DNA of 47,160 nt, counting the filler, from Jimgerdemannia flammicorona (taxonomy: Eukaryota), in NCBI GenBank assembly GCA_003990765.1. It is 2 parts of 2 records of this genome, joined end to end, with 100 filler letters (N's around TTAATTAATTAA, not from the genome) between each part and the next. Parts side by side here need not be neighbours in the genome. Positions count along the whole stretch, not along the records: positions 23,635 to 47,160 come from RBNJ01001097.1; 1 more part is not named here. One strand, 5' to 3'. The notes under the pieces are model-generated. The model did not search any database and had not been told where the DNA came from. It was given only the letters and a program-made list of their open reading frames with translations. Made by a program: the position numbers and the translations under genes. This document shows positions 1-29,239 of this stretch, one piece after another. Position 1 is the stretch's first letter, and every line of letters begins with the position of its first letter.

Positions 1-634
1 CTAGTCCCCAGCGGCAAGCTGTCAAAATCCAATCGATTCTAGTCCCCAGACCCCCTGCCCAATGAGTATAGACCCTCCTACTCCCCCAGCACTCCCTTCC
101 AGCATCCAATAGCACACTCAGCCTCTCGACTTCCTCCCATGCCACCAGCCCTCCACTCCTGCCCTCAGCACCTCGTCCTCCATCTGATCTATCCATCAGT
201 ATATCCCTAACCATATTGAAATCACCCCCTAGCACATCCACCCTGGCCTCCGCAAGTAATCCACTCTCCTGTAGTCCCTTCACCCAATCAACCCTCTCAC
301 CCCATACTGCAGGGCAGTAGCAAGAACCAACCATAACTGGCTCCCAGCCTACCCAAATCCACTCTCCCCAGATCAGTCTCTCCCCCCAGCACTGCACATT
401 CTGTATCTCCCCTCTGCCTTTCCTAACCAAAATCCCAACCTTGCCCCTCCAAATCGCTGCACCTCCCCATTCCTTCGTCCATTCTAACCTATCAGAGTCA
501 TCTTTGCACCAGACATCCTGCAAGAGGAAGAGATCGGCCTCCAATCCCTTCAACTAAGTAAAAATGTTCCTACATCGAGAAGCGCCCCGTAACCCATTCA
601 TGTTCAAAGAGAAAATGTTTATTGTACTGTTCAT
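1..634 (-). pseudogene. ORF2 APE endonuclease domain of copy A (partial)
   Basis: Manual translation: MNSTINIFSLNMNGLRG...FT*LKGLEADLFLLQDV...CYCP...GGDFN...RIDWIL. TGG>TAG stop at 554-556. Confidence 0.9.
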
Positions 635-667
635 ATTGATGATATATGTGATGTTGTCAATCTGCCT

Positions 668-2711: not shown

Positions 2712-2792
2712 GTTATTAGTCTCTTTTTGCTGAAAACGATGTCGAAAGTGCCTTCCAAAGGTTGTGTAACCTGAATGGTACTGGAAAGAGAT

Positions 2793-5524: not shown

Positions 5525-5555
5525 GAGGAATATTGTTAAAGATTAAACCTGTCCT

Positions 5556-7580: not shown

Positions 7581-7663
7581 CTTAATAGTACCTTTTCTCC
7601 TAGTTGTGTCGAAAACCATTGCTTGAAGTTTTTGTGTAATGCGAATTGTACAGGAGAAAGGTG

Positions 7664-8134
7664 ACCATCAGCAGTCCCATCTAGATTTTTTTCCAGATCA
7701 CCCGTCACACCCCCATCAGCAGTCCCTGCCCCAGCTGCTACCCCCCCAGCTCCACCCCTATGGCCCTCCAGAGAGGTACCCCCAAGAGGTTGCTGCCTGG
7801 TAGCCTTCATAGGTACCTTCTCCCCTCTCAGCCAGCTCTCCAGTCCAGCTCCCTGCTGACCCCCCTTCACCTTCTCCACAAAGCTCACCCTGCCAGACTC
7901 TTGTCCTCCAGCTCCACCCCCTCCTCCACTGCAGCCTCCCACCAGCAGGCCCCTCATACTTCCCCCCAAGCTGGGGCCTCTCCCCACTTGCTGCCATTCA
8001 AATGCTCCAGGGCCACCCTGCCTAGTATGCACCTCCAGATGCTCATTGGTCACCATAATTCTAGTAGCTTTTCTCCAGAAACTGTGTCGAAAGTATTGCC
8101 AAAAGATTGTGTAACCTGAATGTTGCCAGAAGCC
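7664..8134 (-). mobile_element. 5' portion of non-LTR copy A2 (5' UTR + ~130 codons of ORF1), interrupted by copy B
   Basis: ATG 8056 MVTNEHLEV...AFEWQQVGRG...DLEKNLDGTADG matches the ORF1 N-terminus of copy A. Its 5' UTR (cattcaggttacacaa) resembles that of A. Confidence 0.88.
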
Positions 8135-11100
8135 TTTATTCTACAGCTGATGCTTCCACTCAGGTCCACCAGGGAAAGCAAATCCCCTGAGAACCCTTTT
8201 TGGAGAGAATCTCATCTCCCACACCTTTTGCATCAATGGTACCCATCCCTCTCCCCTTAGTTCCACAGTCTGCTTCAACCACCAAACTCTTAGACAGTAC
8301 AGCCTCTTAGGAAAGTCCACTCATCTTAGCTCCCCTCAAACTACTGATATTGAAAGGGTATTCCAACTGATCTGGGACTGCCTCCCAGCCTAAATCTAAT
8401 CCCTAGTCAGCTTCATCAGTCTCTTCACCACCCAAGCTGGAAAGTCCAAGTGATAGGCAATATACCACAGCTTAGGGAATCAGTAGACATTTAGAATTGT
8501 TACTCAGCCTGCCAGAGAGATGTAGCAACCTCCCCAACCTTGAAATGCTTTTCCCCAGATAGCCACCCTCCTCTCCCACTATACCTGCAGCAACACTGAT
8601 CCATATACCAAAAGGAAGATGCTCAGATACCTCACTGTCTCTCTTGCTAGGACAATTGATCTAATGACATCCCCTCCCACTAATCCATTTTCCAACACCA
8701 TTGTCTCACACTTATGCCAGTTCAGTTTTGCTCCAGAGTGTATCTCATACCATTCTACCATCTCCTTAAGAGCCTCAATATCTGCCACTGATCTAAGTCT
8801 AACCACCATGTCATCTGCAAAGGCCCCAACCTTCCACACTATACTATAAATAGTGAGCCCTGCCACCTTCTGCCAAATTCTATCTATTAAAGATTCTAAT
8901 AAAATGGCATATAGAATAGTAGACTGTGGATCTCCCTGAGGAACTCTACTCTACAAGGGAAATGCCATACCCCAGTGACCATTACACATCAGTGCTGCCC
9001 TACTACCCTCTAACAGATTCAACATAGAAGCTCAAAATAGCAGGGGAACTCCTATTTTGTCCAGCATATTGTCCAGCCACACCTGCTGAACATGGTCATA
9101 GGCCTTCTCCTGGTCCAAAAAGACCAGTCTCCCATCCAATCCACTAGCCCTTGCCCCTTCAATAATGCCATAGACCCAGGCCATCCCATCTCTGATAAGT
9201 CTGCCTCTAACAAAGCCCTACTGCTCCTCACCCAACACCTGTTGAGCAACTCTCTATAATCTCGCAATAATCACCTTAGTCACCATCTTCCTGTCCATAT
9301 GCAGAAGTATGATCAGCCTCTAGTTCTTCTAATCCTCCCTCCTCCCCTTATCTTTATACAACAGGGCCACCAGCCCTAGGTCCTGCCCTTCTACTCACTG
9401 ACTCCTCAGAAGAACAAAATCACAGAGAGCTGCCATCTCTCCTAACACTCTAGGGACCCCCACTATCTTCTTCCGAAAGTCTCAAGGTAGACCATCCTCT
9501 CCTGGTACCATACCAAGCTTAGTTGCCATAAGGACTCTCTGGATCTCCTCCTCTTGGACTTGAAGGATCAAATCCCCCAGGCCCTCCACTTGTGGTGGCT
9601 CCCAGTTCTCCAGAGTGTCTCCAATTGTCACTGCATTGGTACCCCCTTTCTCATCACTCTACAGACCCCTCCACTACTCCATCAGCAACCTTGAGATCTG
9701 TTGTATACCATGTACCATTTCCCCCTTGGCATCAAGGACTCCATCTCACTGATGTTGCACCCTTCTCACCAGAGGAGCCTTGACAAGTACCTAGTTGGCC
9801 TCTCCCCCTCCTTAAGTTCCTACTACCTCAACCTAGCTATCATTCCTTTCACTCACATCTCCTCCTCCTCTCTCAATACCTATTGCAACTCCATTACTTC
9901 TAGTCTAGCTCACACTAGTCTCCAATCATCTACCTTATCAGAGTTTATCAAATCAGCCCATTCCATCTGCAATCTAACCAACTATTTAAACCACACCTTA
10001 CTCTATTCCATCTTCAACTCCTAGCATCCCTACCAACTTCTCTCCAGTAAACCCTCACAGCCTCTTTCAACTTCATCTACTAGACTTCCACTTGCAAGCC
10101 CTCATACATCCAGCTTATGATCTTCACCTGAATGTCCTGCACTCAAAGGTCCCACAACATCTTCTCAGCTAGTAGAGAGGAGTTAAGGTGTCAATGACCA
10201 GGTCCATCTCCACTCTCCCCAAACTGCCCCTGCCCTAACAGTCCCCAATAGTCTGACCATGGGCACCACTCCACCTCCAGAGTCCTCCAAACATCCAGGC
10301 TCCAGCATTTGGCTGTCAGTATCCAGTCAATCCTTAGACTGAGGTCATTCACCCAATGCATGTAAATCCTCTTTTCTCCCCACTGTGTTCTGCCCATATT
10401 CCATAAGGAGCTAAGGTTCTCTACCTCCTTCCATGTATTCAGACTGTCACTCCTTCCACCAGCACTCCTCTCTCTATCAGTTATATCTAACTAAAGATTC
10501 TTCATCATATTGATGTCACCTTTCAGAACATCCATCTCATCCTCCAAGAATGTGCCCTCCTCCAGAAGACCCTTAAACCATGTAATCCACTCACTCCTAG
10601 TAGCTCAGCATTAGCAAGAGCAAACTCTCACTGGCTCTCACCCAGGTTAACACTATTTTCTCTATACCAAATGGTCTCCCCAACTTCTGATTCTACCTAA
10701 ATCCTCTTTATCCCTCTATACCAAAATTCTCACTTTACCAATCCAAGCTGTAGCTCCTCTCCATTCTCTAGTCCACTCCACTTGATCTATATCATCCTTA
10801 TAACATACATCCTGTAGCAGAAAGAGATCAGCCACCAATATCTTAAGCCAAGTGAAAATGTACTTCTGCTGCCCAGATCTCTGTAACTCATTTATATTCA
10901 GAGAAAAAATGTTAGTTATACTGTTCATTGGGAATAATTTTTAGAAGTTGGATCTTGCACATTTTCTACAAATCCACATCCCTCCTCTCTTGTGCCATAT
11001 CCAAGTTATATTCAGCAGCCAATCCCTTCTCTTCAGCCTCTTTTGCCTTCAATCCCACCAGAAGTTCAGCCATCTCCCCATCCTTCATTTCTTCAAAGTC

Positions 11101-13059
11101 CTCATAATACTCCAGACAGACCTCCTGCCAGAGTTTAAGACCATGATGCTCTGCCCAACAGAAGGTGGCCTGCTCACCAGCATCAACTACCAGCTTGGCC
11201 TCCCCCTTCTTATCAACCTCATACCCCTCCTCCTCCAGAAGAATTGTAAGCACCTCCACCTTCAGTGCCTCCACTACCCCATCATCATGTAGGATCTGTG
11301 CCCAATGCTCCTTGGTCATCACTCTCAGGTCTACTTCTCCCAACTCTTCAGCTGCAAAGTGGTTCATCATCTGGCACATCCAGAGTAGGTTTCCCACCTT
11401 CTTCCCTCCTGGCATTACTGGCCTCCTGGCATCCAGCATTGTGGTATTGGCCCCTACACTTGCAGGCTCATCCCACCCCTCCTCAGGGATATCCACCAGC
11501 TCATCCTCAAAAACTGCCATCACCTGTCCCCCTTTCACCATATCAGGAACTCCAAAGTGTACTTGCTGGGCACCATACATCAGCACATCCTCTGCTGCCT
11601 TACTCCTCTCAGCTGGACCCCATCTGACAAGAGGGCAAGTGTCATCCAATACTTCTTCCCAGACTTTGAATGTACCATCAGTATAAGGGTCATTGCACAG
11701 CATCTTCCTGGCCCAATCCACGCCCTTCTCTCCATTCTCTCCTCTCTTACTAGTCCAGACACTCACTTTTACACCTCCAGACTCCTCATCTCCATAAGTA
11801 TTCTTCTTTGCCCTTCCTTCTATGCTCACCAACAACTCTCTCTATCTCTTACATCCTTGAGCCCTCTCTCACTGCCTCTTGTCAGTGCAAATATATTTCC
11901 CATCCACAATTTCCAAATGCATAAACTCTATATATATCTTTCAGGCCTTTGCCCTCTGCTCTACTGCCTTGCTCATCTCCTCCAGAACCTCCAATAGATC
12001 CTCCTCCTCCTCCTCACTCTCTTTACCCTTGATACCTTACAGATGAAGGCCCCCCACAACATAACCAAAGACCAGTTGCTTGTCTTCTCTATGGCCTCTC
12101 TCCCTGCCCGTCGTCAACATTACCAGTCCTGAAAGTGGTCCCCTCTCACATCTGGAATCCAATATTGACCACATTATCATACTCTACCATCACCTCCTCC
12201 ACCCTCCTCCTAGTCTCAAACTTCATCACCATAGATACCCCCTTTGCCAGTAACTGAATCACTCTGGGGTCCCACCTCAAACACTGCACCATAGAGACCA
12301 CCACCTCTCCTACTACCACTCTAGTCTTCAAGCTTCCTCCAGTAGACCTGCCTCCTCAAAACGCACCTCAACCCCCTCCAATTTCTTCAGAAACTTCCCT
12401 GAGGCAGCTCCAGCCACTTGCTCCAAGATAATCCCCAGAACTATCCTTGCCATTACTGCCAAGCCCCAGAAGTACAAGATTGCAGCAAACTCCAAGATCA
12501 ACTTCTTGAGTAATAGTACCACTGCCAGCCCCATCACACTATCAGCCAGGTCTCCTTTCCTCTTTGGTCTCATCTGCTTGATTTCACCATTAACAGTCAC
12601 ATCTGGATTTTATTCCAGATTCCCAGTCATGCCACTATCAGCAGTCTCCTACTCCCAGGAGATGCTCCACCAGCTCTTCCACCCACTAGTTGATGAGCTG
12701 CATCTCCTACTTCTCCTTCTCTCTACTTTCCCTTTCCCTCCATCTGCCTGCTATGTAATCCAACAGACTATCTGCTAGTCTTCAGTATATCAGCAAAGCT
12801 CCTTCTTCCACCCTCCTGCTCCTCCCCCAGTGCTGCTACTACTATCTGAACTACCCTGTCTACTTGGACTACTGAAAGACCCCATCTCCAATCCATACCC
12901 TCATCCAACATATTGCCAGTCAAAGGCTCCAGGTCTACCCAACCTAGTACATATGTTGGCATGCTTATTGGTTACCATGATCTTAGTACCTTGCTCCAAT
13001 AAATACTCTGAAAGTGTATTGTAAAAGTGTGTGTAACATGAGTGGTAACTGAGAAAGGC
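8135..13059 (-). mobile_element. L1/Tx1-like non-LTR retrotransposon copy C (older, heavily decayed; interrupted in late ORF2 by A2)
   Basis: ORF1 ATG 12978 to TAG 10966. ORF2 ATG 10928 (MNSITNIFSLN...LLQDV), RIDWIL, WKVGAFADD at ~8830. Many stops and frameshifts. Confidence 0.92.
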
Positions 13060-13094
13060 TTGACTAACGATAACATTAAGAAGACTATGATAGC
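13060..13094 (-). mobile_element. 35-bp sliver of Ty3/gypsy integrase between copies C and D
   Basis: The minus strand reads CYHSLLNVIVS, continuing FCYHGLP from ~19000 into the HGLPxxIVSD integrase motif. Confidence 0.8.
13078..13094 (+). repeat. Left target-site duplication of copy D
   Basis: aagaagactatgatagc versus aggaagaccatgatagc at 18996-19012; 15/17 identical and both differences are transitions. Confidence 0.85.
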
Positions 13095-13184
13095 CAGATT
13101 TCCACCTTTCTCTGGTACAATTTATGTTATACCAACTTTAAGCAACAGTTTTTCAATACAACTCAGAGGAAAGGTATTATAACA

Positions 13185-15211
13185 ATATCATTGAGCAAGA
13201 GTTCTGCTGGGTGTGCTGGGTCAGGTAGACCTGGGGCTTTCAGCTAGCAGCATGTAGGGAGGGGTTATGGCCTGGAGATGGGGGCCTTTGGAGGGTCAAA
13301 GGGTGGCGGGGGCTCAGGAGGTGGACTGGTATCTGTTAGCCATGGGGAGAGACCTGGACTTACAAGCTTTGCAGATAAGGTGAAGGAGAGTGGGTGGCCA
13401 GCTAGGATTAGGGCTGGTGCTGTAGTAGAGAAGGGCAAGGTGAGCCTAGAGAGGGGGGGAGTTACTCAGGGGGGGAATGCAAGCATAGGTGATGGAGGTG
13501 TAGTGGCTGGAGATGGAACTGCTGATGGCAGTATGACAGGTAATCAGGAAAAAAAAAGAGATGTGATGGCTGATGGCGGTGTGGGGCAGGGGTTCCTGAT
13601 GCAGAAGGGGGACCTGGCTGATGGTGTGACAGGGCTGGCAGTAGCACTGTTACTCAGGAAGTCAATCTCAGAGTTTGTGGTGATACTGTACTTTCGAGGC
13701 TTGGCAGTGACAGTGAGGATGGTCTTGGGGCTTATCTCAAAGCAGGTGGCTGGGGCTATCTTGGTGAAGTTCCTGAAGGGCCTAGAGGGAGTCGAGGTAG
13801 GCTTTGAGGAGGCAGGCCCACTGGAAGAGATGCTGAAGTCTGGAGTGGTGGTTGGTGAGGTGGTAGTCCCCATGATATACTGCCTGAGGTGGGACCCCAG
13901 GGTGGTGCAGCTGCTGGTGAAGGGGGTGCCTACTGTGACAAAGGAGGAGACTAGGAGAAGAGTGGAGGAGGTGATGGCAGAGTATGGCAATGTGGTGGAT
14001 ATCAGTTTCCAGGTGTGGGAGGGGACCTCTATTAGGACTGGTGATATGGAGGTGAGAATTAGACTGGCAGGAAGGGAGGCCACAGGGAAGATGAGCGACT
14101 GGCCCTCAGTGTTGATGTGGGGGGCTTTTGTTTGTAAGGTGTCAAGGGTGCAAGGGAATGAAGAGGAGGAAGATGACTTGTTGGAGGCACTGGAAGAGTT
14201 GAGTGGTGCTGTTGAGAGGAGGGCAAAGGCCTGGAAGTTGTCTGAGGAGACAACACATCTGGAGATTATTGATGGGAAGAGGATTTGAACTGACAAGGGG
14301 CAGTGGGAGCGGGCCCCAGGGCACAAGTAGCAGAGGGAGTTGTTGGCAAGTATGAGCAGTGGGACTAAGAAGAAGGCAGATGGGGCTGAGGTGTCTGGGG
14401 GCATCGAAGCCAGTGTCTGGGCCAGTAAAGGAGAAGGGGAGGTGGAGGCAGACAAGGAAGGAGCTGGGAAGATGCTGAGCAAGGACCCCTATACTGATGG
14501 CACATTCAAGGTCTGGGAGCAGAAATTGGATGCCACCCCCCCCCCTCTTATCAGGAGGGGCCCAGCTGTGAAGAGAGGGATGACAGAGGATGTACTGATG
14601 CAGGGGGCCCAGCAAGTGCACTTTGGGGTCCCTAATGTGGTGAAAGGGGGCCAGGTGGTGGCAGTTGGCAAGGACAAGCTGATGGATATCTCTGAGGAGG
14701 AGTGGGATGAGGCTGCCAGGTAGGAGCTGATACTTCAATGTTGGATGCAGGGCAGCTAGGGACCCCAGGAGGGAAGGAGGTGGGGAACTTATTGTGGATG
14801 AGCAAGGTGATGGATAACCTTGTAGCAGAGGCATTGGGAGAGGTGGACCTGAGGGTAATGCCTGAGGAGCATTGGGCACAGATTCTGCATAGAGATGGTG
14901 TGGTAGAGGTGCTTAAGGTGGAGATTCTTGTGATCTTCCTGGAGGAGGAGGGGTATGAGGTTGATGAGGGGAGGAAGGCGGAGCTGGTGGTGGTTGCTGG
15001 TGAGTGGGTGGCCTACTGTTGGGCAGAGCATCATAGTTTGCAGCTCTGGCAGGAGGCCTGTCTGAAGTATTGTGAGGACTTTGAGAAGTGAGAAGATGGG
15101 GTAATGGTAGAACTTCTGGGTGGGTTGGAGGCACAGGAAGCTGGAGAAAGGGAACTAGCTGCTGAGCATGACTTGGACTTGGTGCAGGAGGAGCCGAATG
15201 CAGACTTGTAG
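13185..15211 (+). pseudogene. ORF1 of copy D
   Basis: Pieces 13278-14288, 14340-14723 and 14738-15091 are closely similar to ORF1 of copy B. Confidence 0.88.
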
Positions 15212-15240
15212 AGGATAGGATCACTATATATCATTTTCTT

Positions 15241-18200
15241 ATGAACAGTACAACCAACATTTTCTCTTTGAATGTGAATGGGCTAAGGGGATCTGGGTGG
15301 TGTAAGAATATTTTTACTTGGCTCAAGGGATTAGAGGCTGATCTCTTTTTACTACAGGATGTTCAGTGTGAGGATGAGGATAATCAGGTGGAGTGGACTA
15401 GGGAATGGGGTGGGGCTACTGCTTGGTTTAGAAAAGTGGCAATTCTGGTGAGGAAGGGTAGAGGAGACTTGGGGGGAATTAGGAGCTGGGGTGATCGCTT
15501 GGTCTGGGGAGATTGGCATCAGCCAGGGTGGGAGTCAGTGAAGGTTGGCTCTTGCTACTGCCCTGCAGTTAGGGGTGAGAGGACTGTGTAGATTAAGGAG
15601 CTGCTAGAGGAGGGTATTCTCTTTGAGAAAGGGGTTGATGTTCTCAGGGGGGACTTTAATATGGTTTGGGATCAGCATCTAGACAGAACTGATGGAGAGA
15701 GGAGTATAGGGGGGAGAAGTGGAGGTTTGGATGCATGGGAGGAGGTGGAGAAGTTGAGCTCCTTAGTGGATATGGGCAGAACATGGTGGGGCAACACCAG
15801 GGTCTACACACATTGGGTGAATGGCTTGGATATGAGGATTGACTGGATTCTGATGGCAGAGTGCTGGGGTTCCAATATTTGGAAGACATTGGAGGTGGAG
15901 TGGTGCCCATGGTCTGATTACTAGGGACTGTTGGGGTAGGGGCAGTTTGGGAGGAGTGGAGATGGACCTGGACATTGGCACCTTAACTCCTCCCTGCTGG
16001 CTGAGAGGTTGTGGGACTTATGGGTGGAGGACATTCAGGCCAAGGTTGCTATCTGGTGGCATGAGAGTTTGTCTGTGGGTGTCCGTTGGATGAGATTGAA
16101 AGAGGCTGTAAGGGTCTAATGGGGAGGGGCTGATAGAGAAGCTTTGAGATGGAGGAGAAAGTGTACAGAGTGTACTTCTAGCAGGCTGAGGAGACTGCAA
16201 ATGGATTGGACAGATTTGCTTACTTCTGATGAGGTAGAGGATTGGAGGATAGAGTGGGTAAAATTGGAGATAGTGGAACTGCAACAGGTATTGAGAGAAG
16301 AGGAGGAGACTTATATGTGAGGTATGGCTGCTAGGCTGTGGTGGCAGGGGCTTGAGGAGGGTGAGCAGCCTACTAGATACTTATCAAGACTCCTCAAAGC
16401 TTGGAGGGTATGACATCAGTGGGATGGGGTCCTAGATGTCAATGGGGACATGGTGCATGGCACACAACAAATCGTAGTGGTTTTGAAGGAGAGATGGCAG
16501 GGTTTGTAGAGTGAGGGAGAAGGGGGTGCTGATAAGGCGATGATTGCAGATACACTAGAGGAGTGGGGCCGCTGCAAGTAGCTGGACTGAGTAACTTGAT
16601 CTTACCAGTATGGGGAGAGGAGATCCCAAGTGTCCTTGTGGCAACCAAACTTGAAACAGTGCCAGGGGAGGATGGGTTACCATGGGACTTCTGGAAGAAG
16701 ATGGTAAAGGTCCCTGGAGTTTTGGGTGAGATGGCTGCTCTCTGTGACCATGTTCTTCAGAGTGGAGGGTGGGTTGGAGAGCAGGACCTCAGGCTGGTGG
16801 CCTTATTGTACAAAGACAAAGAGAGGAGGGAAGACTGGAAGAACTAGAGACCAATCATGCTTCCGGATATGGACAGGAAGATGGTGACTAAGGTGATTGT
16901 CACAAGGCTGCAGAAAGTTGCCCAATAGGTGCTGGGGGAGGAGCAGTGGGGCTTTGTTGGGGGCAGACTTATAAGGGATGAGACTGCATGGGTGCATGGT
17001 GTCATTGAAGGGGCCTGGGCTTGTGGACTGGATGGAAGATTGGTCTTTTTGGATAAGGAGAAGGCCTACAACTATGTATGATGGGTTTGGCTGAGCAAGA
17101 TGTTAGATCCAATTGGTGTTCCACCAAGATTTCAGGCTTCTATGTTGAATCTGCTAGAGAGCAGTTGGGTAGTGCTGATGTATAATGGACACCAAGGTCT
17201 AGCATTTTCCTTGGGTAGAGGAGTTCCTCAGGGGGACCCTCTATCCCCTATTCTCTATGCCCTTTCATTAGAGCCGTTGATGGATAGGATTCACCAGAAG
17301 GTGGCAGGGCTCTCTATATATGGTATAGTGTGGAAGGTGGGGGCCTTTGCTGATGATATAGTGGTTGGACTTGGGTCTGTGGCAGATGTCAAGGCACTTA
17401 AGGGGACAGTGGAATGGTATGAGGCTCACTCTGGGGCAAAGCTCAACTGGCATAAGTATGAGACAATGGTGCTAGGGAATAGGCTAGTGGGTGGGGACGT
17501 TATTGGAACAATTGTCCCTACTGGTGAGGTGGTGCAGTATCTAGGCATCTTCCTTTCTGTATATGGTTCTGTCTTGCCACAAGTGTGGTAGGAGAGCAGG
17601 GTGACCATGTGGGGGGAGGCTCTTCAAGGTTGGGGAGGCTGCCATATCTCTCTGGCAGGGCAGGTGTCAATTCTGAATGTATACTGGTTCTCCAGCTGTG
17701 GTACGTGGCCTATCACCTAGACTTCCCAGCTTGGGTGGTGAAGAGGATGATGAAGGTGGCTAGAGATTGGATTTGGGCAGGGAGGAGGTCCCAGATCAGT
17801 TGGGACACTCTTGCAACACCAGTGGTCAGGGGAGGTCTTGGCCTTGTGGATTTCCCTAAGAGGTTGCACTGCTTGCAAGCCTGGTGGTTGAAGAGAGCTG
17901 CTGAACTGCAGGGAGGGAGTTGGGTACCTCTGCTGCAGAAGGTATGGGAGATGAGAATCTCCCCTAGAGGGTTCTCAGGAGATCTGCTCTCATTGGTAGG
18001 GCTGAATGGAAATCAGCAGCTGAGGTTTAAGGGCTTTTGGTGGGGAGTGATAGATGGAGCACACCAAATTGACCTGCACTGGCAGGGCAATGAGGGGGAG
18101 GTGATGTGGGGGCCTGATATGTGGCGATGGGATAGACTGCTCCTGGGGGATGCTCCACTGGCTATATTTGATATTGGGGATAGAGTGGAGTGTCAGCAGG

Positions 18201-18895
18201 GTTTTGGCCAGGATCTTTGGCCAAGTGGCTGGCAGGTGGCAGGGATTGGTGAGGAGTGGGACTGGGCAGGTATCTGGTCTTGGAGTGCTGAGGTACAGAG
18301 GTGGCTTTCTCCCAAGTTCTGGGTGGTATGGTGGTGAATGCTGTGGAGAAATGTCATGTTGAATTTCTGCACTAGGCATCTGGTGGACAGTGGCCATTTC
18401 GATTGTAAGGAATGTTGCAATGTAGGGTAAGCTGGGGGTCTTGTGCAGACACTGGAACATTGGCTGGGAGAGTGTGATGTTTTGGGGGACTTTTGGGTAG
18501 AAATAGGGAATAGACTGGGTGTAGAGCAAAGGCCAGTGGGTGAGGGGGGCTGCTGGGAGGACTTGAGGTCACAGCTAGTGAGTGGGGTGGGTGATAGTTG
18601 GCTCACTGTAGGGTGGGTGTTAGCAGTGTGGGTGGGACTAGTGGGCCATTGGCTTTTTGTATTTGAGGAGGGGAGGTAGATGGGGCTGCAGGAGAAGGTA
18701 TTAAGGTGGGAGGAACTGTTGGGGGATCTGCTGACTGGATGGTAGGTGGGTTGGAGTCCCCAGGGGGGGTGACATTGCAGTTTGGTGGCAAAGATCTGTG
18801 AGCAGAGTGGTGGGAGGGTGGAAATTGTATTAGACAAAGTGGTCTTTCAACAGAAAGGGGTAGAGGGGGGGGGGCCCCCTAGGGGGATCAGATAG
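15241..18895 (+). pseudogene. ORF2 of copy D: APE endonuclease, RT, C-terminal zf-RVT-like CCHC; no RNase H recognised
   Basis: APE motifs; GVPQGDPLSP and FADD (~17220-17360); CKEC...TLEHWLGEC (~18400-18480); ends GGPPRGIR*. Confidence 0.92.
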
Positions 18896-18995
18896 GGGGT
18901 GAGATCACTGTATTTATATGGGATATATGGGAATAATAAAGGAAGGAAGTCCAAGTAACTATAAAAAAAAATAAAAAACAAAAAATAAAAATTAA

Positions 18996-19012
18996 AGGAA
19001 GACCATGATAGC
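18996..19012 (+). repeat. Right target-site duplication of copy D
   Basis: aggaagaccatgatagc immediately after the A-tail; matches 13078-13094. Confidence 0.85.
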
Positions 19013-21747
19013 AGAAGATGTTGTCAAACAAGAGTATAACAATGTCTTATACTATTGTAGTGGTAGTAGAAGGTACAAAGTGGGCTTGCTTACTGAGATA
19101 GTCTATGAAGACAGTAATTGTATCTTTTCTATTCTTAGTTCAGGGTAGTTATACAATGAAGTCCATATAGATTTATTCCCAATTAGCTGATAGTACTGAG
19201 ATAGGGTGGAGTAGGCCAGGTTTTGCTAGTGTTGTGAACTTGTTGCATTGGCAGGTATCTCAAGAAGTGATATAGATCTTTAGCTGATCTGCCATTCAGG
19301 GCCAATAGAAGTTTTGGGAAATAACTTCATAGTATTTATCAAATTCTAAATGTCTAGCTATAGGGGCATTATGATATTCAAATAGAATACTCCTTCAGAG
19401 GTCTCAATTGTTTGGAACTTACAATCTGTCCTTATAATAGATAATATTATCCATTAGTTAATAGCAATGATACTGGGTATACTGGTCAGAATTGTCACTG
19501 TTTAGAATTTCTTAGAGTATTTGAGCTTCTTTATTATCAGCACATACTATGATAATTTGTTCCATGATAGAGTTGGTAACCAAGGTGAGAGTTTGGATAA
19601 CTTCTTTGATGGTGGTCTAGAGATTATATTGGTAACAATATTCTCCTTGCCAGAGTGATACTGGATTTTGTGATCAAAGTTGATGAGAACTTTCATCTAT
19701 CTGGCTTGCTTCTGGGAAAGGATAGCCTGGGTCTTGATGTTGACTAATGATTTGTAGTCAGTCAATATGGTGAAGTGTGCTCCTTTAAGATATGGTCACT
19801 ATTTGATTAGAGTGTCTACAATGGCTAACATTTTCTTCTTATAGATTACATAGTTGATTTTGATATTATTGAACTTGTGGGAGTGATAGGCTACAGGGTG
19901 TCCTTCTTGCATGTATACTACTCCAAGAGCTAGGTCAGAGACATCAGTAGTAACTTCATATGGTAGGGCAGAGTTTGCTACTTGAAGTACTGGAGTGATT
20001 ATCAAGGCATCTTTCAGCACTTGAAAGGCTGTATCTTGTCCAGGTTCCCAATTTGCAAGATTATTGAAGTCTTTTTCTTGCTTCATGGTCTAGAGCTGTT
20101 CTTCTTTCTTGCTGTGCTTAGTCATTTGAGTGAGGGCAGTAGCGATCTTGGCAAAGTTGGCAACAAATCACCAGTAATAGTTTGCTAGTTCCAGAAATGA
20201 CTGAAGGTCTTTCAGCTTCTTGGGTCTGGGCTATTCCTTAATTGTGGAGATTTTGCTGGGGTCCACTTTGATTCCATTCAGTTTGAAAATATGTTTAAGG
20301 AATTGAATTTCCTTTAGGAGAAATTTGTATTTGCTAAGTTTTACAAAGAGTCAGTTTTCTCAGAGTTTCAGTAGTACTAGTTTGAGTGTTTAAGATATTC
20401 CTCCAGGGTTTTGCTGAGACTAGAATGTCATCAATATAGACAACAATAAATGTGTCCAGATATGGGTGCAGGATGGTATTCATCAGTATCTGGAAGGTTG
20501 CAGGAGCATTAGTTAAGCCAAAAGGCATAACTAGGAACTCAAAATATCCTTAGCTTCGGAAGGCAGTCTTGTAAATATCTTCTTCTTTCATGGTAATTTG
20601 TCAGTAGCCATTATGCAGATCAAAAGAGCTTATAAATTATGGGTTGGTAAGCCTATTGAAGATTTCATCAATTTAGAGTAGTGAGCAACAGTTCTTAGTA
20701 CTTGCTCATTGAGGTTGCAGTAGTCTATATATATTCATAGGTCTCCTCCTTTCTTGACAACAAAGAAGGGTGTACCATAGGGTGATACACTGGATCTAAT
20801 GAATCCTTGTTCTAGAAGTTCATTAATCTCTTTCTTGAGTATATTAATTTCTCTAGGAGACATATGGTAGATTGATTTGAAGATAGATTTGGCATCTGAG
20901 ATGATCTTGATGGCATGGCCTACTGCTTGTTTAGGTGGTAGACCTTATGGAAGTTTCTTTGGGAATATGTCTTAAATTTCTGGAGTAGGGATCTGAAACA
21001 GCTGTCAACTTTGAAAAAATCTTCTTTAGAGTTCTCAGGTTCTCCTTTGGATAGGCAGATGGAGATGGCAAAGAGAGGGCATTTCTTGGCCAATTTCTTG
21101 AGCTATAGCTTATTAATATGGGTGATCTATGGTCCAGAGTCACTAGAACTGAGTGGGTCCTTTTCACCTTACAGTTTGAAGTTATGGCATCCTTTCTTGA
21201 TAGTCAGAGAATGGTTTACCCAATCGATCATAGGGTTCTCTTATTTCAATCATGGGGTTCCAAGGATAATTTCATTATTAGAAAGTGGTACAACCTGGAG
21301 AGTAACATGTACTCAATAGTCATCAATTCAGAAGGGTAGGTTGTGGACTTCCTTGCTAATGATATGTGAGGTTCTATTAGCTATGGCAACTTTTTGAGTT
21401 TGTTGTACCAGAGAGGTCAGGACCTTGAGTCTGTTGGCTGTTTCTTCATTAATGAAGTTGCCTGAGGCACCACTGTCTATTATAATCTTAATAGGTGCTC
21501 AGTTGATAAAAGCTTGAAGTATAAGCAGTTTGTCTGATCCAATAGTAGTGATTTCAGTTATAAAAGCTTTCCTTCTGTGAGTTCTTCTTTGAGCCAATTC
21601 ATTGACATAAGAGAAGTAATTATTGATCATTCAGAAAGAGTACATTCCAATGTCATGGAGACATCAGCTACTTAGTAGATATCCATCTTCGATTTTCTTA
21701 TAGAATTGTTCTTCTTTACTTGTGGTAGGTTGGGCTAGGGCCTTGTT

Positions 21748-22155
21748 TGATGAGCCAAATCTTTTAGATCCTTGGATGGTGGGTAGTAGTTCAGAGACTT
21801 CCTTAACTATCAGGGTTGACTCAATTTTTTTAAATAGGATCTGGGCAATACAGTAATCAATGGGAATCTTAAAGGATGTCTAACTATAGTTTCAGATGAG
21901 AATAATGATTTTGTCTGTGTAATCCTCATCAATGACTCCTCCTTCTACTGAGAGTCCTTTCAGTGCTAGGCTAATGTGGCAGCATATTCTTCCAACATGT
22001 CCTTCAGGAATCTGAATACTAATTCCTGTATAGACTTGCTTGACTTCTCAGTTGGAAACTGTAGCTTCTTCAGCTACATATAGATCATAACCTGCTGCTT
22101 TTTGACTTCCTTTGATTGGGGTCTTGGCAGTTGGCCTTAACTTGACAAAGTATAC
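21748..22155 (-). pseudogene. dUTPase domain within the gypsy polyprotein
   Basis: Motif 1 AAGYDL (22081-22098), degenerate motif 2 GRICCHISLA, motif 3 GGVIDEDY (~21919-21942), motif 4 IAQIL (~21835-21849), motif 5 QGSKRFGSS (~21748-21775). Confidence 0.9.
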
Positions 22156-23266
22156 AGTCTTTGTAGTCATATTGTTCAGATGATGCAGGGTAGTAACAGT
22201 TGCTTTCATTGCTGTTCAGAGTTTTCAGTTAGGGCAGACACTGGCCATATGTCCTGTCTTTTAGCAATAAAAGCATGCTCTACTTATTCAAAGTTCATTT
22301 CTTTCTCCTTCAGTAAGTTTCTTAAAGATACTCAACTGGGTAGGTTTATAATTTTGGGGCATCCAAGAGGTGGATGTGGAGGATGCTTGAGATGCTTCAT
22401 GCTTGGGTTCTTCTTTCTTATTCCAAGTCTTTTCCTTATTATTGAATTGCCTTTGAGGCAGAATTGGTCTGGCTGTCAGAATTCACTTAACCATAGTCTT
22501 TATTCTTGCCAGGCATCATTGTTGGTGGTCACAACCAACTGAGCATTCTTGTTCTCAGATTTTTCTTGTAAGCTATTCAGGTAGTGCATCAAATTAATGA
22601 TCTGCTCTTATATTATTTTGTACTTCATCATTGGCAATGTATCCTAGACCAATGGTGTTCAGAAGTGACTCAAGTTTTGTACAGAAGGTTTCGAATTCCT
22701 CCTTGTCATGTACATCAAATTTGAGGTTGCAGAGTTTTACTTGATATTCAGCAATCAGAGTTTCACTGCAATATTGAGCAATCATGAGTTGTTTGAGTCC
22801 AGGGGCTGCAGGATGGGCTCTATATCCTGGGGCATTATTTGCTACATTCTGGGCCACTACTATAGATCAGATATTCCATGTAAGGAGTTTTTCAAGAAGG
22901 GTTCACCACTATTCTTCAGCAGGTTCTTAGAAGAATATAACAACTTGACAGATATAGGCTGTAGTAGTAGCAAAGAGTTGTTCCAGAGTGTGATCTTGAT
23001 TGTTTGTCAGAAGACAGTCAGCAACTTGCTCATTGGTCCATTGATTGGCTTCAAAGTTGATATCAACCATACTAATGAAGCTTTGAACTTCATGTGCAGT
23101 ACCATTGAAGGTAGGTAGGCTCAGACTTTTTGTTGGTTGGGCCTATTCTGCTAAGACAGCAATGGTTGCTGCCATTATGGCTACCTGGGCTATGAGGTCT
23201 AGAATCTGTTGTTTTGCCATATTGTTTACTGGAGGTGGTTGGACTGCTGGTAGTGGTATTACTGGT

Positions 23267-23534
23267 AGGGGGACCATCTATCCCCTATTCTCTATGCCCT
23301 ATCACTGGAGCCGTTGATGGATAGAATTCGCCGGAGGATAGCAGGGCTCTCTATCTATGGTATAGTGTGGAAGGTGGGGGCCTTTGCTGATGATATGGTG
23401 GTTGGACTTGGGTCTGTGGTGGATGTAGGGGAACTTAGGGAGATGGTGGAATGGTACGAGGCTCATTCCGGGGCGAAACTCAACTGGCATAAGTGTGAGA
23501 CAATGGTGCTAGGGAATGGGTTGGTGGGAGGGGA
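23267..23534 (+). mobile_element. 5'-truncated non-LTR fragment E (RT core) joined to gypsy gag; runs into the gap
   Basis: GDHLSPILYALSLEPLMDRI...WKVGAFADDMVV...GNGLVG. Confidence 0.88.
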
Positions 23535-23634
23535 NNNNNNNNNNNNNNNNNNNNNNNNNNNNNNNNNNNNNNNNNNNNTTAATTAATTAANNNNNNNNNN
23601 NNNNNNNNNNNNNNNNNNNNNNNNNNNNNNNNNN
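23535..23634. other. Assembly gap with artificial six-frame-stop linker (44 N + TTAATTAATTAA + 44 N)
   Basis: Symmetric 100-nt spacer; TTAATTAATTAA gives stops in all six frames. Confidence 0.95.
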
Positions 23635-24980
23635 CCCCCCCCTACCCCTTCTCAACAAAAAACCACTTTATCAAAAACCCAATGACATCCCCTCCCACTA
23701 GCCCATTCTCCAGCACTATTGTCTCACACTTATGCCAGTTGAGCTTCGCTCCAGAGTGTGCCTCATACCACTCCACTGTTTCCCGAAGAGCCTCTACATC
23801 TGCTACAGATCCAAGTCCAACTACCATGTCATCTGCAAAGGCCCCCACCTTCCATTCCACACTATATACCGAGAGCCCAGTCACCCTCTTATGGATCCTG
23901 TCCATCAAAAGTTCCAAGGAGAGTGTATAAAGGATAGGGGACAGTGGGTCCCCCTGAGGGACTCCTCTCCCCAAGGGGAATGCCAAACCCCTGTGACCAT
24001 TACACATCAGCACCGCTCGACTCCCTTCCAACAAACTCAACATAGAGGCTCGAAACTGTGGCGGAACACCAATCCTGTCCAATACCTTGCCCAACCAAAC
24101 CCACTGAACATGGTTGTAGGCCTTCTCTTGATCCAAAAAGACCAGTCTCCCATCCAGTCCACAGGCCTGGGCTCCTTCAATAATGCCATGTACCCAGGCA
24201 GTGCCATCTCTTATAAGTCTACTACCTACAAAGCCCGGTTGCTCCTCCCCCAGCACCTGTTGAGCAACCTTCTGTAGCCTTGCAACAATCACCTTAGTCA
24301 CCAACTTCCGATCCATATCCAGCAGCATGATTGGCCTCCAGTTCTTCCAATTCTCACACCGGCCCTTATCTTTGTACAATAGGGCAACCAGCTCTAAGTC
24401 CTGCTCACCAACCCATATGCCATTTAGAAGAACATGGTCACAGAGGGCCGCCATCTCACCCAGCATCCCTGGGACTTCCACCATCTTCTTCCAGAAGTCC
24501 CACAGTAACCCATCCTCCCCTGGTGCTGTCCCAAGCTTAGTCGCTGCCAGGATACCTTGTATCTCCTCCTCCTAGACAGGTAAGGTCAAGTCACCCAGAC
24601 CCTCTATCTGTGGTGGCTCTCACTTTTCCAGCGTATCACCAATCGCCTCTGCATCAGCACCCCCTTCTTCCTTACTCCACAGACCCTGCCAATTCTCCTT
24701 CAACACTCCCAGGATCTGCTGCGTGCCATGCACCAGCTCTCCCTTAGCATCCAAGATCCCGTCCCACCTATGCCTCACCCACCTGGCTTTGAGGAGCCTA
24801 GACAAGTACCTAGTAGGCCGCTCCCCCTCCTCAAGCCCCTGCCATCTAAGCCTGGCTGCCATACCTCTCATATGAATCTCCTCCTCCTCTCTCAACACCT
24901 GTTGCAGTTCTACAACCTCCAATTTCACCCTCACTAGCCTCCAATCCTCCACCTCATCAGACGCAAGCAACTCTGTCCAC
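23635..24980 (-). mobile_element. Non-LTR fragment F: 5'-truncated RT region very similar to copy B, with an internal deletion joining it to the ORF2 3' end
   Basis: Open RT frame 23642-24484. Homology stops at ~24980. Bases 23635-23678 match the ORF2 end of D (~18825-18870). Confidence 0.9.
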
Positions 24981-25144
24981 CAAGGCTTCACCACATACAC
25001 AAGCAACGGGCGACCCGCCCAGTCCGGGCACAACAGGCAACTTCACAGAAGACCTCACAATCCAAGCCTCTCTCAACGCTTCTATCTACACCCGTCACCC
25101 TCGATCATGTCATTCAAGCGTCCAACACGCGCAATTTCGAGCAA

Positions 25145-26110
25145 GTGAAGCGGTGTTTACGCGCCGACCCGGCATTGGCGCTGGCGTGCAATGAGAGGGG
25201 ACGAATGTTGCTTCATCATGCTTGTGGGAAGGGCCATTTGCAGATCGTCGAACACATCCTATCCACCGCCTTTTCCACGACCCCATCTCTCCTCCATCAA
25301 AAAGACTGCTACGGAGAAACCCCCTTGCACCGAGCCACATGCTTCAATCACCCGCACATCACACTTCTCCTCCTGCGCCAGGGGGCGAATCTCGCGGTTT
25401 GGGATGCACAAGGTAACACGCCCCTGCACATCGCCGCGCACACGGGCAAGGGCGAGATGATCAAGATGCTTGTTGGCCAGGGAGCAGACGTCAGGTTGTG
25501 GAATACGGCCGGGAGGACACCGTTGGATGAGGCGAGGGCTTCAAGTTTTTCGAATGGGAAGGTTGTTGGGTTGTTGAAAGTGGCGAGCAAGAGTAGGAAG
25601 CGGAGCGTTGAAAGCGTCGAAAGAGCTGCAGATGATGGATCGTTGGCTCCGCATGTCCAGGCGGCTCCTGATCTGCCGCGTAAGTTGCAGAAGAGATCGT
25701 CCGATGTCGGACTGATCAAAGATCCGCGAAAGAATTGGCCTTGCGAGTATCAGTGCTCGGATGGCCACTACGTCCGCTCGAAAGGCGAAGCTTTGATCGA
25801 TGACTGGCTATACTATCATCGTATCTGGCATTCCTACGAACACCAATTTATCCCGCCCACATCTCCCTCTACGCCGCTCACCCCGGACTTTTACCTGCCT
25901 GATTACGATGTCTACCTTGAGCTTTGGGGTTTTGCGGATGATGACCCGGTGGGGAAGCTGTACACAGCGAGGCGACGCGAGAAAGAGGAGATATATGAGC
26001 GGTTCGGGGCCCCCGTGATTGGGGTGGGACAGGAGGAGCTCAAGTGCTTGGATGACGTGCTGGCAAGAAGATTAGCGGAGTGGAAGGTCAAGAGGAATGG
26101 GAGACTATGA
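25145..26110 (+). CDS. Ankyrin-repeat protein fused to a C-terminal bacterial-type PD-(D/E)XK/Vsr-DUF559-like nuclease domain; true start uncertain
   Basis: About 4 ANK repeats (GRMLLHHAC, GETPLHRA, GNTPLHIAA, GRTPLDEA), basic linker KSRKRS, then DGHYVRSKGEALIDDWLY...PDFYLP..VYLELWG...YTARRREKEEIY. The frame is open back to the LINE junction with no ATG before 25205. Confidence 0.8.
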   Translation: MKRCLRADPALALACNERGRMLLHHACGKGHLQIVEHILSTAFSTTPSLLHQKDCYGETPLHRATCFNHPHITLLLLRQGANLAVWDAQGNTPLHIAAHTGKGEMIKMLVGQGADVRLWNTAGRTPLDEARASSFSNGKVVGLLKVASKSRKRSVESVERAADDGSLAPHVQAAPDLPRKLQKRSSDVGLIKDPRKNWPCEYQCSDGHYVRSKGEALIDDWLYYHRIWHSYEHQFIPPTSPSTPLTPDFYLPDYDVYLELWGFADDDPVGKLYTARRREKEEIYERFGAPVIGVGQEELKCLDDVLARRLAEWKVKRNGRL

Positions 26111-27529
26111 GGAAGGGAGAGACGGAATATTGGATAATGTGGGTTTTTTGAGTTGACTTTCTCACAATATGTACTATTTACACTTCGCTCGCCGAAGGAA
26201 GTGAGAGTTGAAAATAATCAAACAATGAAGAAACCACGTCCACCGAAAATCAGAAGACGCATCCCATGAATCGGTGGTCCTGGTTCATCAGAGGAATATC
26301 TCGCACGCACATAGAAGTGGGTTATTGCGGATTAATCTTCCTATAAAATCACGAAATGATCGTACAATGTGGCGAACGGATAGCTTGAGTCGGACTCAGA
26401 CAGCATTATTAGCCATCACTGTCTTAAATCATGTCCTAAGATCCTCCGAGCGCATAGTTTAGTATTATACAAACTAGTTTCAACCGTCGCTCGCCGCTTC
26501 AGCCCACCAGCCGCCGCCGCCACTCGCTCGCTGCCCATCGCTAGCCTGTTCGCCACTCACAGCCAGCCAAGGGTGGAGGTGGATATCCCCGAAGTATTAT
26601 GCTCTCAAGACAAGGGGGCGTGGGAGATTGCGCGACACCAAACAAACAAAAAGAGCATTGCGCGGCGCCAAACAAAAAAGGAGTGGAGAAAGAAAAGACC
26701 GCATGAATGATCACAAGGCCATTAGCCATCATTAGGAGGAAATCCTTTTCCACGGGCGGACGTGGTCTGGCGTCATCACCACAAAAACTGGTTTCAGCCA
26801 AAATCTCCTCATGCTGACTCTAGGGATCACATAGTGCAGATTTATACGGTTGGTCTGCATTGTGAACGCCTACCAGATGGTCCTTCGATTACACAAACTG
26901 TCACCACCCCTCTCCAGGATCTGATGGTCCACAAATCCGAACTCGCTACATACGCACATCCAATCTCGACGTCGCCGCATGGGGTGTGTTTTCATTCTCG
27001 CCAATCCAACATCCCCTCCACATCTCAAATGCTAAACACTCTCGCATCAGCAACCAGAACGAACCCAAACCAAGCATCCATATCGTCCAAGCGCCCACAA
27101 ATAGACAATGATCTATAATACAATAGAAAGAACACAGAAATTCTCGACACAAACAAAGAAAACGCAAAGAAATAATAACACGTGTAAACACACATGAAAC
27201 CCCAAAATGGGCACGACACGAGCCGTACAGAACCGCAGACTCGAAAATAAGGAGCGTCGGCCACAGGAGACGGGATGAGATTGAATGATAAAACGGTAGG
27301 AAGTAAGGAGGTATGATGAGTTGAAATGGAGATGCCGGGGCCCCGGCTCTAGTTCCTGATGAGCGGACGGCGGGGTTGAGGGGAAGAGGAGGGAAGAGAT
27401 GTTTCAGTAAGTTGAATTGTTTGAGCCGGCACGCTTCCTCCAAAAGACTGAAGAGGACGGCAAAAATCAATCTTTCTATTGTATCACGCTACTCTCCCCA
27501 ACTTTCCTCCCCCAAAAAAAACGTAGAAC

Positions 27530-29239
<1,710 letters not shown>

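Follow-up and report, generated by a model that had tools for sequence, protein, structure and literature searches.

An ankyrin-repeat protein with a predicted Vsr-like nuclease domain of prokaryotic type, encoded by a probably CpG-decayed gene copy in Jimgerdemannia flammicorona

The ankyrin-nuclease gene and its surroundings

A stretch of 47,160 nucleotides, filler included (the window), from the fungus Jimgerdemannia flammicorona (assembly GCA_003990765.1) was analysed. It consists of two parts of two records joined by 100 filler letters, and the part described here, positions 23,635-47,160, originates from RBNJ01001097.1. This part carries a gene encoding ankyrin (ANK) repeats followed by a predicted nuclease domain of a mainly prokaryotic family. 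Its open reading frame (ORF) extends from stop to stop over positions 24938..26110 on the plus strand and comprises 390 codons including the stop codon. No intron is required by this frame, as an earlier reading made from the DNA sequence alone (the sequence-only reading) had stated. The first in-frame ATG, at 25205, yields a product of 301 amino acids which is identical, letter for letter, to the publicly annotated protein P0172. Position 25145, chosen as the start in the sequence-only reading, is in frame, does not form a start codon and marks only the beginning of the ankyrin region. None of the annotated records of the gene bears a specific public name, in line with the sequence-only reading, which had not recognised it as a named fungal gene.

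The ankyrin-repeat domain (25094..25594, plus strand) consists of an N-cap and, judged by eye, about four repeats. Its tandem 33-residue repeats match the Pfam models Ank, Ank_2, Ank_3, Ank_4 and Ank_5 and place the product among the ankyrin-repeat proteins. Matches were located at amino acids 3-112 of the 301-aa product, with E=1.9e-19 for Ank (three stretches) and 2.8e-17 for Ank_2, and all six Pfam families found for the window protein at E<=1 are ankyrin families. As to the origin of this module, a search with the ankyrin region returned, besides three Endogonaceae proteins, only generic ankyrin matches of 24-45% identity. The nuclease domain of about 120 aa occupies positions 25715..26092 on the plus strand; it is of the Vsr-like PD-(D/E)XK, PDC-S69 type according to PADLOC, alignments, an AlphaFold2 model and fold matches.

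Annotated close relatives are P0002 (RUP44852.1) and P0003 (RUS24304.1) from J. flammicorona and P0004 from Endogone sp. FLAS-F59071. Identity to the Endogone protein amounts to 74% in the nuclease domain, 61% in the ankyrin region (102 of 167 residues), 30% at the N-terminus and 11% in the linker (5 of 46; residues 201-246). This poorly conserved linker (25595..25714, plus strand), annotated with the basic motifs KSRKRS and PRKLQKRSS, had been supposed to contain a nuclear localization signal. All other Jimgerdemannia copies examined read ESRKRS, and the lysine results from a GAG-to-AAG change specific to the window, as are both K25589 and L25686; the supposed signal is thus in part a product of mutation and lacks conservation. 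Some segments that form open, family-conserved sequence in the window are missing from each of the public models P0003 and P0004: P0003 is without GETPLHR and without the stretch KSQKRSS...CSDG, and P0004 is without DPRKNWPCEYQCSD. These segments may be mis-predicted introns, or the loci may be damaged; the latter would mean more than one imperfect copy.

Directly upstream of the gene lies a reverse-transcriptase (RT) fragment resembling long interspersed nuclear elements (LINE; 23645..24571, minus strand; Pfam RVT_1 E=3.5e-29), in a CpG-depleted repeat block that ends at the 5' edge of the gene. Downstream, part of a protein arginine methyltransferase (PRMT) gene was identified at 27533..28134 on the minus strand, with PRMT_C matches of E=8.1e-41 and 2.2e-10 in two frames; an adjacent intron-containing PRMT gene had been correctly recognised before. 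The LINE fragment, the ankyrin-nuclease gene and the intron-split PRMT gene are located on one N-free stretch of 23,526 bases, as is to be found for a gene integrated in a chromosome.

The scaffold contains two runs of 44 N's about 1.3 kb upstream of the ORF (23535-23578 and 23591-23634). Two RT fragments face each other across these runs, one on the plus strand (RVT_1, 23269-23520, E=2.9e-8) and the minus-strand fragment at 23645-24571; they may represent a gap of the assembly within LINE copies that are nested or inverted.

Family and predicted fold of the nuclease domain

The domain was studied with the query P0001 (window 25640-26107), and residue numbers follow this query. The motifs DGHYVRSKGE (E at 25787-25789), PDFYLP (D at 25886-25888) and YLELWG (E at 25919-25921), reported together with KSRKRS in the sequence-only reading, are all present. 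All 102 aligned family sequences share four invariant acidic residues, namely E50 (25787-25789), E67 (25838-25840), D83 (25886-25888) and E94 (25919-25921). Conservation of at least 90% in these sequences was found for D41, G42, H43, V45, R46, S47, D54, L57, H64, Y66, F84, Y92, W96, G97, Y108, K115 (25982-25984) and Y119. The catalytic-type columns are thus not conserved by chance, and every family-invariant residue is kept in the window copy. E50, D83 and E94 correspond to the acidic metal ligands of PD-(D/E)XK enzymes, i. e. the glutamate of helix 1, the aspartate of 'PD' and the glutamate of '(D/E)xK'.

Comparison with PADLOC profiles gave PDC-S69 as the best match (E=1.8e-28). The match covers profile positions 172-287 of 289, and the N-terminal 171 positions remained unmatched. 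HEAT_CxxC_PD-DEXK (2.2e-11) and PDC-S68 (1.7e-6) followed, the latter at the C-terminus (about 1100-1190) of a model of 1,221 positions. PDC-S69 is a single-gene phage-defence candidate which shares with the fungal protein the C-terminal ~120 aa and the motifs DGHxVRSxxE, H-x-YE, DF(Y)LP and E-x-WG; its first ~170 positions, in bacteria typically a zinc ribbon and a helical N-terminus, are replaced in the fungus by ankyrin repeats. The PDCs are introduced by Payne et al. 2024 (bioRxiv 10.1101/2024.01.29.577857) as 145 candidates, chosen for having homologues inside BREX, DISARM or type I restriction-modification (RM) loci; PDC-S69 is not named in the main text of that preprint.

An exhaustive HMMER search of 1.84 billion representatives yielded a family of 1,497 clusters at E<=1e-3 and 460 at <=1e-10. 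The fungal cluster stands alone at E<=1e-30, and the next matches are 34-49% identical. The P0001 domain itself gave no Pfam match at E<=1, no NCBIfam match at E<=10 and no match to sequences of the Protein Data Bank (PDB) at E<=10. Neither for the window protein nor for the 50 homologues scanned did any Pfam model exceed its cut-off over the nuclease domain. Weak Pfam matches over the domain occurred among these homologues for DUF790 (four), DUF559, PvuRts1I-like_N and Phage_endo_I (one each). DUF559 (PF04480) is absent from the Pfam list of the window protein at E<=1; among the 50 homologues it was matched by P0027 alone (E=0.0066, 16.7 bits versus a cut-off of 20.6). The family also matches phrog_9019, 'Holliday junction resolvase', weakly (7.7e-5). 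With the family profile, the only solved structure reached by sequence was Bax1 (6p66_B, E=0.09), with PDF...YIE-x-x-G...Y...K-x-x-K aligned.

An AlphaFold2 model based on the alignment of 102 sequences reached a predicted local distance difference test score of 88.3 and a predicted template modelling score of 0.75. The model was compared with 48,161 chains using VIA-align. I-Bth0305I ranked first (Z 11.0; 98 aligned, root-mean-square deviation 3.2), followed by the Toxoplasma mitoribosome chain 9g6k_L9 (Z 10.8), NGO0050 (Z 10.0) and the FAST1-FAST2-RAP module of FASTKD4 (Z 9.6); Vsr (Z 9.3), Bax1 (Z 8.8-8.0) and TnsA (Z 7.3) were found further down. In the model, the alpha-beta-beta-beta-alpha-beta core of PD-(D/E)XK enzymes is superposable on solved Vsr-like members. 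In the ESM Atlas, unnamed bacterial clusters scored 0.94, and the nearest named ones were DUF559 clusters at 0.85, which we regard as a lead only. A homodimer prediction for the nuclease domain scored 0.30 and 0.31 versus a mark of 0.32, which carries no weight for or against a dimer.

Three observations speak against this assignment. Foldseek found no PDB match at E<=1e-3; the same proteins were listed with E values of 4e-3 to 6e-2, the best being 4.3e-3. Chains annotated as RNA-associated, 9g6k_L9 and the RAP module of FASTKD4, score level with true nucleases. Furthermore, the lysine of (D/E)xK is replaced by tryptophan (W96) in at least 90% of the family, and the catalytic scheme is therefore not the textbook one. 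Vsr-like members are known to deviate at this position, and K115, nearly invariant in the next helix, may substitute for the canonical lysine. Taken with the fold ranking, the model makes it highly probable that the C-terminal domain has a Vsr-like PD-(D/E)XK fold, as the sequence-only reading had proposed.

Within this fold the domain stands apart from the known branches. It shares the predicted fold with Vsr, DUF559 and I-Bth0305I, but the window protein matches neither the Vsr nor the DUF559 Pfam model, and its signature is E-x-W-G, where DUF559 has E-x-D-G and Vsr has F-x-H-G. Bax1, the archaeal XPB-associated nuclease of the DUF790 type, resembles it by a marginal profile match below every threshold and by structure; Bax1, however, is a multi-domain helicase partner of ~370-480 residues, whereas the fungal domain has ankyrin repeats as its fusion partner. 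RNase L and ANKLE1, too, combine an ankyrin module at the N-terminus with a nuclease at the C-terminus. This likeness is an analogy and does not imply membership: the nuclease domains are KEN RNase in RNase L and GIY-YIG in ANKLE1, both unrelated to the fungal one, and none of the KEN RNase, GIY-YIG, LEM and kinase domains was detected by Pfam in the window protein. The nuclease of RNase L is gated by its ankyrin module, which acts as a ligand sensor.

Prokaryotic relatives and origin of the fungal domain

Prokaryotic genomes, one per species, were scanned using an alignment of 18 sequences. Of 437 pattern matches 430 were confirmed, and 80 loci were kept. They belong to Bacillota, Pseudomonadota, Bacteroidota, Chloroflexota, Binatota, Campylobacterota, Planctomycetota and other phyla, and two are archaeal. 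In all 80 loci the domain forms the C-terminus of ORFs of 144-451 aa. The N-termini of 50 homologues carried a double zinc ribbon in five cases, ankyrin repeats in three (P0077, P0100 and P0104, one of them named as from a metagenome-assembled genome of Bacteroidota), TPR in two (P0052, P0153), OB folds in two (P0112, P0118), a domain of the uracil-DNA glycosylase (UDG) superfamily in one (P0054; UDG E=3e-36) and DuOB, RQC and HEAT domains in one (P0129). P0229, the single find in a search range of 990-2825 aa, combines a UvrD helicase, ankyrin repeats and the nuclease domain. This protein and the PDC-S68 model bear out the earlier statement that the family is mainly prokaryotic and occurs stand-alone or at helicase C-termini. 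The fusions to UDG, OB folds, DuOB/RQC/HEAT and UvrD with ankyrin repeats point to DNA as the putative substrate.

Relatives were also detected at 16 loci on viral contigs. The best of them (L081:2800-3360), a member of 187 aa, is 45% identical to the fungal domain and is located in a prophage lysogeny module between repressor/anti-repressor genes and an integrase, a location typical for prophage-borne exclusion genes. Close relatives of the fungal domain were not found in JGI metagenome contigs, where 0 of 214 pattern matches were confirmed.

The neighbourhoods of 15 prokaryotic loci were inspected. Neighbours included Mrr-type (two) and MmeI-type (one) genes, one PLD-helicase-DUF3427 gene, two integrases, one Sir2 with HTH-M78 and one GIY-YIG-HRDC. 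Embedding in BREX, DISARM or type I RM systems was shown for none of the 15 loci. The neighbourhoods are mixed, with restriction, integrase or defence-like genes at about 6 of the 15 loci and housekeeping genes at the rest, and this weighs against a role in defence.

Close ankyrin-bearing relatives of the fungal protein were found only in Jimgerdemannia and Endogone, among the best 150 of the 1,497 clusters and in the search with the ankyrin region. Twenty proteins were checked by name, namely P0002, P0003 and 18 of the 150 prokaryote-type matches listed. In a tree of 242 rows the four fungal domains formed one clade (Shimodaira-Hasegawa-like approximate likelihood ratio test 99, stem 0.93), and five prokaryotic ANK-fused domains formed a separate clade with a support of 99. 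A tree of 65 rows gave 100/100 for each of these clades, the fungal one standing among bacterial and archaeal sequences; across trees the stem of the fungal clade was 0.75-0.93. In the unrooted tree this clade is nested within a radiation of Bacillota, Pseudomonadota, Bacteroidota, Chloroflexota, archaea and others, where it sits in a polytomy of prokaryotic lineages. Branches are short and the prokaryotic phyla are intermingled, as would be expected of a mobile gene.

These results make it quite likely that the nuclease domain was transferred horizontally from a bacterium or phage into the ancestor of Endogone and Jimgerdemannia. Two points count against this conclusion. The absence from other eukaryotes refers to the top of the match lists, and next to the fungal clade the two trees place different lineages with a support of at most 73, the tree being unrooted; therefore, no donor is named.

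The whole architecture of ankyrin repeats and nuclease may also have come ready-made from a bacterium, with a protein of the Bacteroidota type such as P0104, P0077 or P0100 as a model, so that no assembly took place in the fungus. Prokaryotic ANK fusions exist (3 of 50 homologues, and P0229), and an approximately unbiased (AU) test with the fungal and the prokaryotic ANK-fused domains forced into one clade (10 rows including the fragment P0143) gave p=0.317 at a log-likelihood difference of 10.06; a common origin of the ANK fusion therefore stays unrejected. However, the prokaryotic ANK-fused domains form a clade of their own in both trees, which in the 65-row tree lies inside a group without fungi (98/92 within 80/96). 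Furthermore, the similarity of the fungal and prokaryotic ankyrin parts is confined to single repeats (27-34% identity); the arrays lack collinearity and comprise about 4 versus about 10 repeats, and no prokaryotic ANK-nuclease was present among the 59 matches of the search with the ankyrin region. We thus consider transfer of the complete architecture unlikely. Of the earlier proposal that a horizontally acquired nuclease was grafted onto a eukaryotic binding module, the acquisition is upheld by the position of the fungal clade inside the prokaryotic radiation; the grafting is not, given the prokaryotic ANK fusions and the result of the AU test. The prokaryotic repeat fusions (ANK, TPR, HEAT, UvrD with ANK) resemble the fungal protein in combining the same nuclease family with a protein-binding repeat module, and differ from it in that their nuclease domains belong to other clades of the maximum-likelihood trees and that the ankyrin arrays of these proteins comprise more repeats.

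Decay of the window copy and possible function

The window was compared over positions 24500-26500 with contigs from four runs, two of which (X1 and X2) stem from one organism and are of a guessed library type; the third (X3) is a root and the fourth (X4) a soil metatranscriptome. Parts without coverage were taken as uninformative. Among 31 listed differences, 27 show G or C in the other copies and A or T in the window, two are T/G transversions and two run in the opposite direction. CpG context was found for 20 of the 27 (20 of 228 CpG-context bases versus 7 of 591 others; odds ratio 8, p=5e-7). Endogone sides with the other copies against the window at eight amino-acid positions and with the window at one. 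The changes affect 26 codons, 17 of them non-synonymously and 9 synonymously. In the nuclease domain two changes are non-synonymous (R-to-Q at 25752, A-to-V at 25950) and three synonymous, and the invariant residues are untouched.

The start codon was affected as well. At 24995..24997 (plus strand) the window has ATA (Ile) where the models of the orthologues have their first methionine, so that the ancestral start codon was apparently lost; the N-terminus reads IHKQRATRPV in the window, MHKQRATRPV in P0003 and MYKQRSAR in Endogone P0004. The first in-frame ATG, with which the public 301-aa model starts (25205..25207, plus strand), lies within ankyrin repeat 1. It exists because of a C-to-T change at a CpG, position 25206: the other copies have ACG (Thr) at this site, with GRTLLHH in P0003 and GRTVLHH in P0004. 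With the orthologues' start codon apparently lost and a burst of CpG transitions, the window copy is not a pristine gene.

The ratio of observed to expected CpG (o/e) is 0.17 for positions 1-13000, 0.07 for both 13000-19000 and 19000-23500, and 0.23 for 23642-24900, which include the LINE RT fragment; it is 0.92 for the ORF and 0.98-1.08 downstream. The gene is thus located exactly at the edge of a repeat block bearing the signature of long-term deamination of 5-methylcytosine (5mC), and this block is presumably methylated at 5mC. The general principle behind this signature is treated in a review (PMC13297926), the available part of which does not mention Endogonales.

Positions 1-19000 of the window contain copies of LINE-like retrotransposons in both orientations, with an APE-endonuclease-like coding sequence near 15240-15480. 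Strand asymmetry is extreme in this region: the sense strand has about 37% G and 14% C and almost no AT skew, and GC skew is -0.5 over 1-13000 and +0.47 over 13000-19000. CpG decay alone is insufficient as an explanation. A fragment of an RNase H of a long terminal repeat retrotransposon (RT_RNaseH_2, E=5e-20) is located at 19802-20089 on the minus strand in AT-rich (GC 0.36-0.39), CpG-poor sequence.

RNA editing was rejected as an explanation for the A>G and T>C differences, as the types of both strands are present, the DNA-derived P0002 and P0003 carry the G/C states, and 8 of the 9 residues informative in Endogone are polarised against the window. Metatranscriptome contigs from X3 and X4 (151-359 nt, 95-99% identical) cover positions 25354-25870 and carry the undecayed states wherever variants are informative; they lend weak support to the transcription of some copy of the gene in nature. 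The X2 contig (1,434 nt) aligns in two pieces meeting at 25577-25580, and about 83 letters between them match nothing in the window. In the linker region of that copy, they may reflect an insertion, a duplication or an artefact of assembly.

The window copy is likely to be a CpG-decayed variant and, although its nuclease domain is intact, is probably weakly functional or non-functional. Three facts argue for caution: the methylation of the block is deduced from CpG statistics; the expression evidence is weak, as metatranscriptome contigs may contain DNA and X1 and X2 are RNA only by guess; and the window copy retains an uninterrupted frame of 390 codons, so that 'decaying' denotes a tendency and is no proof of death.

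The following sequence of events would account for these results. A bacterium or phage would have been the source from which the nuclease domain entered an ancestor shared by Endogone and Jimgerdemannia. The protein would act as a metal-dependent DNA endonuclease with E50, D83 and E94 forming the metal site, and its ankyrin module may govern targeting or activation through binding of a protein partner. Such a combination of sensor repeats and nuclease would follow the same logic as in those prokaryotic members which have TPR, HEAT, ANK, OB or zinc-ribbon N-termini. Its most likely role would be in genetic conflict or in defence, with endobacteria, viruses or mobile DNA as targets. In the window copy, which borders the presumably methylated retrotransposon block, CpG-to-TpG/CpA transitions would have led to the loss of the ancestral ATG and to the annotation of an ATG made by mutation. 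Taken as a whole, i. e. an Endogonaceae gene with a transferred nuclease domain, encoding an ankyrin-gated or ankyrin-targeted metal-dependent DNA endonuclease with a likely conflict role and represented in the window by a CpG-decayed, probably impaired copy, this account is favoured with modest confidence. The role in defence or conflict taken by itself is possible and tentative.

A DNA-repair endonuclease comparable to Vsr or Bax1, which might nick T:G or U:G lesions in a genome heavily damaged through cytosine methylation, would agree with the fold matches to both proteins, the Bax1 profile match, the relatives fused to UDG, OB folds or DuOB, RQC and HEAT, and the strong CpG decay in the host region. 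The prokaryotic distribution, however, is patchy and non-taxonomic, copies are found in prophages and some neighbours are restriction or integrase genes. By profile the family is closest to a phage-defence candidate, the Pfam models of Vsr and DUF559 both fail to match the window protein, and among fungi the gene was found, within the matches listed, in Endogonaceae only, unlike a core repair function. A repair role is therefore quite improbable.

The domain might also be a catalytically silent, RAP-like module binding RNA or other nucleic acids in a protein that serves as an adaptor. The replacement of the canonical lysine by tryptophan and the high rank of 9g6k_L9, which we take to be a RAP-domain protein, and of human FASTKD4 among the structural matches would fit this assumption. 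It is very unlikely in view of the four acidic residues invariant in 102 of 102 sequences and the two histidines and one lysine conserved in at least 90%, a pattern of an active metal site; moreover, Pfam gave no RAP match at E<=1, and the weak sequence matches are to nucleases (phrog_9019, DUF790/Bax1, Phage_endo_I, PvuRts1I). Bacterial contamination or mis-assembly, to which the prokaryotic type of the domain and the two N runs upstream might hint, can practically be dismissed, as the sequence-only reading had expected: the gene shares its uninterrupted stretch with fungal flanks, orthologues are present in two further Jimgerdemannia records and in the second genus Endogone, and the mutation pattern shows a eukaryote-like CpG decay.

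Returning to the transferred, ankyrin-governed endonuclease, both the fold and the prokaryotic family are of known kinds, and the family is uncharacterised. A published description of the fungal ANK fusion, of its likely foreign origin or of the decay of the window copy was not found in the literature searched, where matches were judged by title and abstract. The gene appears to be lineage-restricted, and its window copy is probably on the way out. The annotated start codon created by mutation calls for caution with the public gene model. If the decay is real, it would provide a clean case from nature of CpG transitions eroding a gene that adjoins a retrotransposon block.

If the proposed origin holds true, an uncharacterised nuclease would have crossed kingdoms from the prokaryotic pool of defence and mobile genes into an early-diverging lineage of mycorrhizal fungi, and the design of a repeat sensor with a PDC-S69-type nuclease would be common to bacteria and a eukaryote. 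It would also define a family of about 1,500 clusters (50% identity) with no Pfam model above cut-off in the scanned proteins and with candidate catalytic residues which can be assayed. A further-reaching and rather doubtful assumption is that an ancestor of the Endogonaceae put an immune nuclease of prokaryotes or phages under the control of an ankyrin sensor and thereby obtained an effector of innate immunity or cell death against endobacteria, mycoviruses or invading DNA. If so, this would be a further part of bacterial defence reused in eukaryotic immunity, the first for this nuclease family, and it would provide a testable function for PDC-S69.

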